Shown here: in pieces, positions 55,981 through 56,086 of the stretch
Position numbering within the stretch: position 1 is the first letter of the stretch
Layout: each line of letters starts with the position of its first letter
Assembly: GCF_000027125.1 (NCBI RefSeq)
Contig: NC_017626.1
Length of the DNA: 64,000 bases
Direction: 5' to 3' (one strand)
DNA from: Escherichia coli 042
Lineage (GTDB): Bacteria > Pseudomonadota > Gammaproteobacteria > Enterobacterales > Enterobacteriaceae
Notes under the pieces: generated by a model
Told to the model about the DNA's origin: nothing
Seen by the model: the letters and a program-made list of their open reading frames with translations, nothing else
The model's database searches: none
Translations under genes and position numbers: made by a program

Positions 55981-56048
55981 TATTGCTTTTAGTCATCGTT
56001 ATTCCACGGTAACAGTGGTTTTCAGCCGTTTTTTTTAGTTATATGTTT

Positions 56049-56086
56049 AGTTATACGGTCTGGCGGGTAGCTAAACCCGTATAACT
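56049..56086. promoter_or_regulatory. 10-bp perfect inverted repeat upstream of the integrase gene
   Basis: AGTTATACGG-N18-CCGTATAACT, plus direct repeat TAGTTATA at 56036 and 56048; 34-84 bp upstream of int ATG. Confidence 0.4.

Follow-up and report, generated by a model that had tools for sequence, protein, structure and literature searches.

The proL locus and its resident satellite

The DNA analysed here is a 64-kb stretch of the E. coli chromosome, referred to throughout as the window. In this stretch yejM (54002-55762) is followed by the tRNA-Pro(GGG) gene proL, which serves as the integration target of an inserted element. The tRNA region is matched in 5,425 of 5,426 complete E. coli genomes, and in most of them, K-12 included, the match stops at position 55915 of the window (query position 116); these are island-free sites. 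The insertion is a phage satellite of about 8 kb, of the PICI/P4-like kind. A near-identical island in XJ6.1 measures about 8.2 kb and has its far end just before yejO, and its left junction is 99.4% identical to that of the window.

The cognate integrase of the repeats described below carries an N-terminal arm-DNA-binding domain. Its sequence matches Pfam Arm-DNA-bind_3 (PF13356, DUF4102; 3.3e-25), Phage_int_M and Phage_integrase, together with NCBIfam PRK09692 (556 bits). The N-terminal domain also matches PDB entries 3JU0 (7e-21) and 3JTZ/3RMP, a “CP4-like integrase” (4e-15), which are arm-binding domains of genomic-island integrases (PMC8138268). The AlpA-like protein of the window is identical to an annotated HTH protein of XJ6.1. 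Other island products include Ash-like, Icd-like, DUF4222, SSB, ProQ/FinO and PerC-family proteins, and sister islands at the same tRNA, proL, possess small-terminase and capsid genes. This gene set agrees with described Gram-negative PICI-type phage satellites (PMC6092414, PMC11773190). EcCIMP1 was considered as the same element and rejected, as it is a different PICI, located at tRNA-Thr (PMC11773190).

Table 1. Features of the proL satellite and its left junction, in window coordinates
Feature	Position	Strand	Basis or remark
tRNA-Pro (GGG), proL; integration target	55837-55913	+	ARAGORN; Rfam tRNA, 54.9 bits; yejM upstream
att core, CTCTCGTGCCGACCAAA; host homology up to 55915	55899-55915	+	Island-free genomes; empty site read in K-12; degenerate core copies at attR of relatives
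Second repeat class flanking the terminator: TTAATCATCGTTTTT (55926-40), TTAGTCATCGTTATT (55989-56003)	55926-56003	+	Conserved CAxCG columns; arms compared side by side
Island-borne intrinsic terminator: 14-bp perfect stem AAAAAAGCCCGCTA / TAGCGGGCTTTTTT, 10-nt loop	55944-55981	+	Inverted-repeat search
Weak sigma-70 candidate TTTTCA-17-TATGTT, low confidence; -10 spans the DR1/DR2 junction	56019-56047	+	Relaxed scan, 8/12 matches
Putative arm-type repeat DR1, TTTAGTTATAtg, 12-bp unit	56034-56045	+	
Putative arm-type repeat DR2, TTTAGTTATAcg, 12-bp unit; also left arm of the 13-bp inverted repeat (56046-56058)	56046-56057	+	
Degenerate inner inverted copy; + strand GGTAGCTAAA, reverse complement TTTAGCTACC	56067-56076	-	Alignment with relatives; regex scan
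Putative inverted arm-type copy; + strand cgTATAACTAAA; right arm of the 13-bp inverted repeat (56077-56089)	56078-56089	-	
int, P4/CP4-57-type tyrosine integrase, 414 aa; N-terminal arm-DNA-binding domain, residues 8-94	56120-57364	+	
alpA-like HTH gene, 63 aa; putative RDF or activator	57617-57808	+	Pfam Phage_AlpA, 25.2 bits (cutoff 21)
DUF927 protein, 712 aa, in place of the primase/helicase replication gene of sister islands	island		
Right-arm (P arm) repeat pair, first base; the window ends at this base	64000	+	Window end GCAGCAAATCATT matches L001 28168-28179

The repeat block upstream of int

From the att core toward int, the features follow one another in a compact order: the core, about 30 bp, the terminator, about 50 bp, the repeat block (56034-56089), 30 bp, and the int ATG. 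The terminator is borne by the island; it stands in for that of the tRNA gene and shields int from transcription coming through the tRNA. In all distant relatives, reading the sequences by eye shows a stem-loop and a T run at the same position. The island terminator escaped a terminator scan of 55750-56250, probably because the scan allows loops of at most 8 nt and the loop here has 10.

The first-pass annotation had described a direct repeat, TAGTTATA, at 56036 and 56048 and an overlapping 10-bp inverted repeat, AGTTATACGG (56049-58) -N18- CCGTATAACT (56077-86), lying 34-84 bp upstream of the int start. The direct repeat and the distance are correct, with the int ATG at 56120, and the inverted repeat is present at these positions; its length, however, is not 10 but 13 bp. 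It consists of the perfect arms TTTAGTTATACGG and CCGTATAACTAAA (56046-58 and 56077-89) around the 18-nt spacer. The direct repeat is likewise fuller than described, being formed by TTTAGTTATA at 56034-43 and 56046-55 with a start-to-start distance of 12 bp. This 10-mer is present in three exact copies, two direct and one inverted (56080-89). A further inner inverted copy has decayed in the window and is intact in islands of the type found in 2011C_4037 and ATCC 25922 (the 2011C type).

This clustering is highly unusual for the window. No further exact copy of TTTAGTTATA occurs elsewhere in the 64 kb, and three non-overlapping copies of any 10-mer appeared in none of 20,000 dinucleotide shuffles of the terminator-to-ATG interval of 137 nt, where non-overlapping, non-homopolymer 10-mers were counted. 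Clusters of three non-overlapping copies inside 80 nt are formed by only three 10-mer families in the window, the two others being a REP-like cluster and the island iterons. Perfect 13-bp inverted repeats with a spacer of at most 40 nt are found at only five loci in the 64 kb; besides the present one, these are a REP-like site, two terminator-type stem-loops and a site in coding DNA. In the REP-like cluster (6312-6360), GCATCCGGCA occurs three times together with a perfect 13-bp inverted repeat, ATTGCCGGATGCG; the cluster is unrelated to the repeats beside int.

The repeats could in principle be a product of chance in AT-rich DNA, or belong to a dispersed host repeat family (REP, BIME, ERIC), the latter being a possibility raised by the first-pass annotation against its own reading. 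The region is indeed AT-rich, and one-mismatch matches to the 10-mer across the window do not rise above shuffles (4 observed, 3.0 expected), but the three exact copies all fall within 56 bp, as no shuffle did. The distribution of the block is not that of a REP-, BIME- or ERIC-like family: it is found in 361 of the 5,426 E. coli genomes, at a median of one place per genome and never on plasmids, every inspected copy adjoins the integrase of a proL island, and island-free K-12 lacks it. Together, the shuffles and the genome distribution effectively refute the reading as chance or host repeat, which is left with a negligible probability.

A matching far arm and concerted change of the motif

The far arm of the window's own island lies outside the window, and its arrangement is taken from the near-identical island of XJ6.1. 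There, a far-arm pair, TTTAGTTATAcgTTTAGATATAcg, is followed after about 62 bp by the attR core. In the 40 kb searched in XJ6.1, the only copies of the motif other than those beside int are one exact and one single-mismatch copy, paired in 12-bp phase at the far end. The same two-arm arrangement is present in four further proL islands, those of 2011C_4037, cq9, ATCC 25922 and C5, so that in all five islands repeats differing from the core lie on both sides of it.

Together with the window island, these fall into three types. In 2011C_4037 and ATCC 25922, the int side has two direct and two inverted copies of TTTAGTTATA, and the far arm reads TTTAGTTATAcgTTT(A/G)GTTATAcgg. In cq9 and C5, the int side has TTTAGCTA(T/C)A in both direct copies and in the inner of the inverted ones, the outer one having decayed, and the far arm reads TTTAGCTACAcgTTAAGCTA(T/C)Acg. 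Most cq9/C5 copies on both arms, including the first right-arm copy, are thus TTTAGCTAYA in place of the TTTAGTTATA of the window type, and the T-to-C change is found in the remaining copies as well. All cq9/C5 copies, on either arm, therefore have C instead of T at motif position 6, and the motif is element-specific and changes in concert. Identity between the three island types is 80-89% in the repeat block, versus 38-60% in the flanking spacers.

The attR cores of these relatives are imperfect, with differing deletions of 1-12 nt relative to attB (CTCTCGTGaCCc..., CTCTCGTGCC-AAAAA, CTCTCGTGGACC, CTCTCGTGCGACC; L001 28265-28285, L003 22946, L078 24257, L004 24864 and L079 26887). As this holds for five of five complete relatives, some of the islands may be decaying or immobile, with their sites as relics. 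An IHF-like site, AATCA(A/T)NNNNTTA, precedes the attR core by 29-31 bp in all five proL islands (outside the window, at L001 28233-28245, L003 ~22917, L004 ~24833, L078 ~24227 and L079 ~26857); in cq9 and C5 it is a perfect match to WATCAANNNNTTR. A junction of the attP type, with far arm, core and int-side arm in succession as expected of a circular or tandem form, occurs at 3976-4310 of one IMG/VR contig (L040, IMGVR_UViG_2695420855_000011). It was rejected as clean proof of a circular form, since this 8-kb contig is duplicated or rearranged, its head recurring at 4305 and its tail at 3551.

Attachment-site layout in phage P4, CP4-57 and the ssrA islands

The GenBank record of phage P4 annotates 12-bp units as “attP arm sequence repeat”, with the motif TTGGGGGCAT. 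In the orientation of int, these are arranged as two tandem units, 53 bp, the core, 112 bp, two tandem units, 15 bp, and one inverted unit at the int start. The proL islands correspond to this layout in the number, phase and orientation of the units, with similar distances: a far-arm tandem pair lies 53-62 bp from the core in both, and tandem units with an inverted copy lie 112-118 bp from the core on the int side, just upstream of or at the int start. Both elements are satellites in which int, encoding an integrase of the Arm-DNA-bind_3 type, adjoins the att site, and both have their core in the 3′ end of a tRNA gene. The motifs, in contrast, are unrelated (TTGGGGGCAT in P4, TTTAGTTATA in the proL island), and the P4 integrase is distant from the window Int and absent among the matches listed. 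P4 integrates at leuX, a different tRNA gene. It has a single inverted copy that overlaps the start codon, whereas the window has two, of which one is intact and the other decayed, and they stop 30 bp short of the ATG. An additional annotated copy inside P4 int has no counterpart found in int here.

CP4-57 of K-12, with intA and alpA at ssrA, provides a second comparison, its IntA being 55-58% identical to the window Int. The order is the same: the core, then an island-borne stem-loop and its T run, a direct pair in 12-bp phase, an inverted copy, and int, with alpA downstream of int as in the window island. Upstream of intA, TTTAGGCCCAtt and gaTAGGCCCAac are followed after 22 nt by GTTGGGCCTAAA; at the far end, 22 kb away, TTTAGGACCAac and aaTGGGACCAaa lie about 60 bp from a degenerate copy of the core. 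The left-arm motif is TTTAGGCCCA, the right-arm motif TTTAGGACCA/TGGGACCA. The motif shares the TTTAG start with that of the window and differs in the 3′ half (TTTAGGCCCA). CP4-57 also differs in its target, ssrA rather than proL, and in being a 22-kb cryptic prophage rather than an 8-kb satellite. No description of its putative arm-type repeats was found in the accessible literature.

Similar arrangements recur among the 73 integrase relatives in IMG/VR. Most of these contigs begin exactly at int, and those that do contain no recognisable right arm; nine have upstream sequence. In the ssrA-associated islands, whose integrases are 44-48% identical to the window Int, the core and a stem-loop with its T run are followed on the int side by two direct copies at a 12-bp spacing and then by one or two inverted copies. 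Their motifs are lineage-specific, namely TTTAGTGGTA (L062), TTTAGGAGTA / TTTAG(G/T)AGTA (L076), or TTTAGTTATA itself. A right-arm pair was not found for L062 and L076 in the sequence examined, which in L062 has a lone match at 17405; the sequences of L076, L069 and L070 stop short of the far ends of their islands.

Int as the probable reader of the repeats

Among the roles that the first-pass annotation had offered for the repeats, that of arm-type sites is strongly supported by the two-arm arrangement in 12-bp phase, the concerted change of the motif, the layout shared with CP4-57 and P4, and the arm-binding domain of the integrase. On these sequence comparisons, the repeats are most probably the int-proximal (P′) arm-type integrase sites of the proL satellite, and we propose Int as the protein that binds them. 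In this mechanism, the N-terminal domain of a heterobivalent island integrase would bind the 10-bp motif TTTAGTTATA. The int-side arm would offer two tandem copies in 12-bp phase along with one intact and one decayed inverted copy, and the far arm two tandem copies. Bridging between arms and core, probably with the help of IHF, would then assemble the intasome for integration and excision.

Variation in the integrase itself provides a weak but directional signal. Across the three types of proL island, the N-terminal domains of the pair that shares a motif appear slightly closer (80% identity, versus 77% and 76% for different-motif pairs), while the rest of Int ranks oppositely (83.6% for the same-motif pair versus 90.6%). 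At long range, N-domain identity fails to track the motif, as L069, with the same motif, and L076, with a different one, are both 55.8% identical to the window.

The repeats might instead bind the island's AlpA-type recombination directionality factor (RDF) or activator rather than Int. An AlpA-family gene lies downstream of int, and in P4 the region between int and the core is bound by Vis. The sites of RDFs are as a rule direct repeats with a period of roughly one helical turn (PMC7498355), and the spacing of DR1 and DR2 is 12 bp. The TorI sites of KplE1 also overlap the promoter PintS (PMC2951348). Boxes for Xis, Vis, TorI or AlpA would nevertheless sit uneasily with a motif that occurs on both arms and in both orientations, at a position corresponding to the annotated arm repeats of P4, and these properties favour Int. 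AlpA similarity moreover runs against the motif grouping, at 63.5% for the same-motif pair and 73% for the different-motif pair, and the AlpA of the PICI EcCICFT073 is without effect on Pint (PMC6092414). The excisionase option of the first-pass annotation is accordingly the least supported of its proposals, and we consider it unlikely.

A better RDF candidate is available in a separate repeat class of CA(C/T)CGG type that lies between the core and the arm repeats. In the window it takes the form CATCGTT / TCATCGTT; the 2011C type has five copies of CACCGGA, and the cq9 type has ATCGGTAA / ATCGG(T/A)AA. The class is also seen at L003 14120-14150 and L004 14120-14140. Copies resembling AACGG(A/T)TAA are located upstream of the far-arm pair in cq9 and C5. 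Judged by their sequence and placement, these elements are candidate AlpA boxes.

Identifying Int as the probable reader of the repeats has mainly annotation value: it fixes the attL arm, core, terminator and putative arm sites of a satellite island family found in about 8% of complete E. coli genomes, whose repeat block is annotated in none among the matches listed. It reveals no new mechanism, the architecture being already known from P4-type attP arms. What it adds is that the attP layout of P4, with two tandem 12-bp units per arm and an inverted unit by int, extends to CP4-57 and to PICI-like satellites. It also supplies testable sites for Int binding, for int autorepression and for a specificity swap (T versus C at motif position 6).

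Transcription of int and its possible control by the repeats

Because the island has its own terminator just after the core, any dedicated int promoter should lie within 55982-56119, an interval of 138 bp whose central 56 bp are filled by the repeats. A standard scan of 55750-56250 returned no sigma-70 promoter. The relaxed scan yielded the weak candidate listed in Table 1, and the only -10-like hexamer with five of six matches is TATAAC (56080-85), inside the inverted copy. Stronger candidates overlap the direct repeats in relatives, namely TTGACA-16-TACATT with an extended TG in L062 and TTGATA-17-TATTGT in CP4-57. An overlap of promoter and operator in the window is suggested with low confidence, given that the candidate promoter matches at 8 of 12 positions.

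Int bound at the repeats would very probably repress its own transcription too, as do P4 Int, IntS of KplE1 and IntI of PAI I-536. In KplE1, IntS represses its own gene through sites in the att region, with P4 cited as a parallel (PMC2951348). IntI of PAI I-536 represses its own promoter, and P4 Int autorepression is cited in that work too (PMC7286903). The authors of the KplE1 study predict such negative autoregulation for most tRNA-associated integrases (PMC2951348). From the position of the repeats and these precedents we infer that Int autorepression, which the first-pass annotation had listed as one option, is likely, with a confidence somewhat better than even.

The parallels are close in arrangement and less so in detail. 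In KplE1 (CPS-53), int is transcribed away from a tRNA-borne attL as in the window, from a dedicated promoter inside attL, where arm-type P′ sites as well as TorI sites overlap PintS and negative autoregulation operates (PMC2951348). KplE1 differs in integrase family and in motif, its P′ sites sharing TAAA, and its promoter and sites were mapped experimentally whereas those of the window are predicted. IntI of PAI I-536 is a P4-type island integrase next to a tRNA gene, self-repressing, with an IHF site in the att/promoter region; the paper describes no arm-type sites (PMC7286903). The IHF-like site of the proL islands lies on the far (attR) arm, unlike that of PAI I-536 in the int promoter region.

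Alternatively, the inverted repeat might function in RNA, folding into a hairpin of the int leader that serves as attenuator, terminator or stability element, instead of or besides being a protein site. On thermodynamic grounds such a hairpin is plausible, as a 101-nt stretch folds at -30.6 kcal/mol (z = -3.66), and TTTTTT follows the stem after 6 nt in both the window and the 2011C type. For P4 int, short 5′ transcripts are known in lysogens, as is RNA binding by Vis. A suggestion linking Vis to mRNA is mentioned in PMC2951348. A hairpin role leaves unexplained, however, why the far-arm copies, which are without an inverted partner, keep the same sequence and phase. The T run is missing in cq9, L069 and CP4-57, the spacing between direct and inverted copies varies widely among relatives, and the stem is AU-rich. 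The inverted repeat was not called by the terminator scan, and 56046-56089 matches no Rfam family, so that it groups neither with intrinsic terminators nor with known cis-regulatory RNAs. Transcription from the weak promoter candidate, should this be genuine, would begin within DR2, and the leader hairpin could not form. The hairpin reading is thus very unlikely, and putative arm-type sites that may double as an Int operator remain the preferred interpretation.

A bolder extension of the arm-site interpretation, which we regard as rather unlikely, is that integrases of the CP4-57/PRK09692 type read a bipartite arm site with a swappable code, and that the palindrome serves both as Int operator and as leader-RNA hairpin. 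The site would then combine an invariant TTTAG with a lineage-specific half of 5 bp (TTATA, CTAYA, GCCCA, TGGTA or GAGTA). A few residues of the N-terminal domain could set the variable half, and such a code would prevent cross-reaction between satellites and islands that share a cell. The two direct and two inverted copies, which together make a near-perfect palindrome, could also control int post-transcriptionally as a leader hairpin.

Other features of the island

The PerC-family and ProQ/FinO-family genes of the island are located at 62514-62798 and 61981-62517, respectively. PerC-like genes on PICIs have been associated with silencing of LEE1 (EcCIMP1, Citrobacter rodentium) or with no effect on EPEC/EHEC LEE1 reporters (PMC11773190).

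In two IMG/VR contigs (L036 and L044, 9735-9785), no more of tRNA-Pro than its 3′-terminal 47 nt (from CATGGGGTG) lies ahead of the satellite, fused to unrelated DNA. The satellite may thus sit in tandem behind another element, one whose att site takes in a longer stretch of the same tRNA.

Iterons of the form CTTGTCCCA(CC) are grouped in two clusters, at 61309-61443 and 63598-63720, which are probably the replication origin or origins of the satellite. One cluster, just 3′ of the DUF927 gene, has direct and inverted copies. The other, near the right end of the island, is composed of three direct copies of ACTTGTCCCA, an AT-rich palindromic spacer and then inverted copies of GGTGGGAC.
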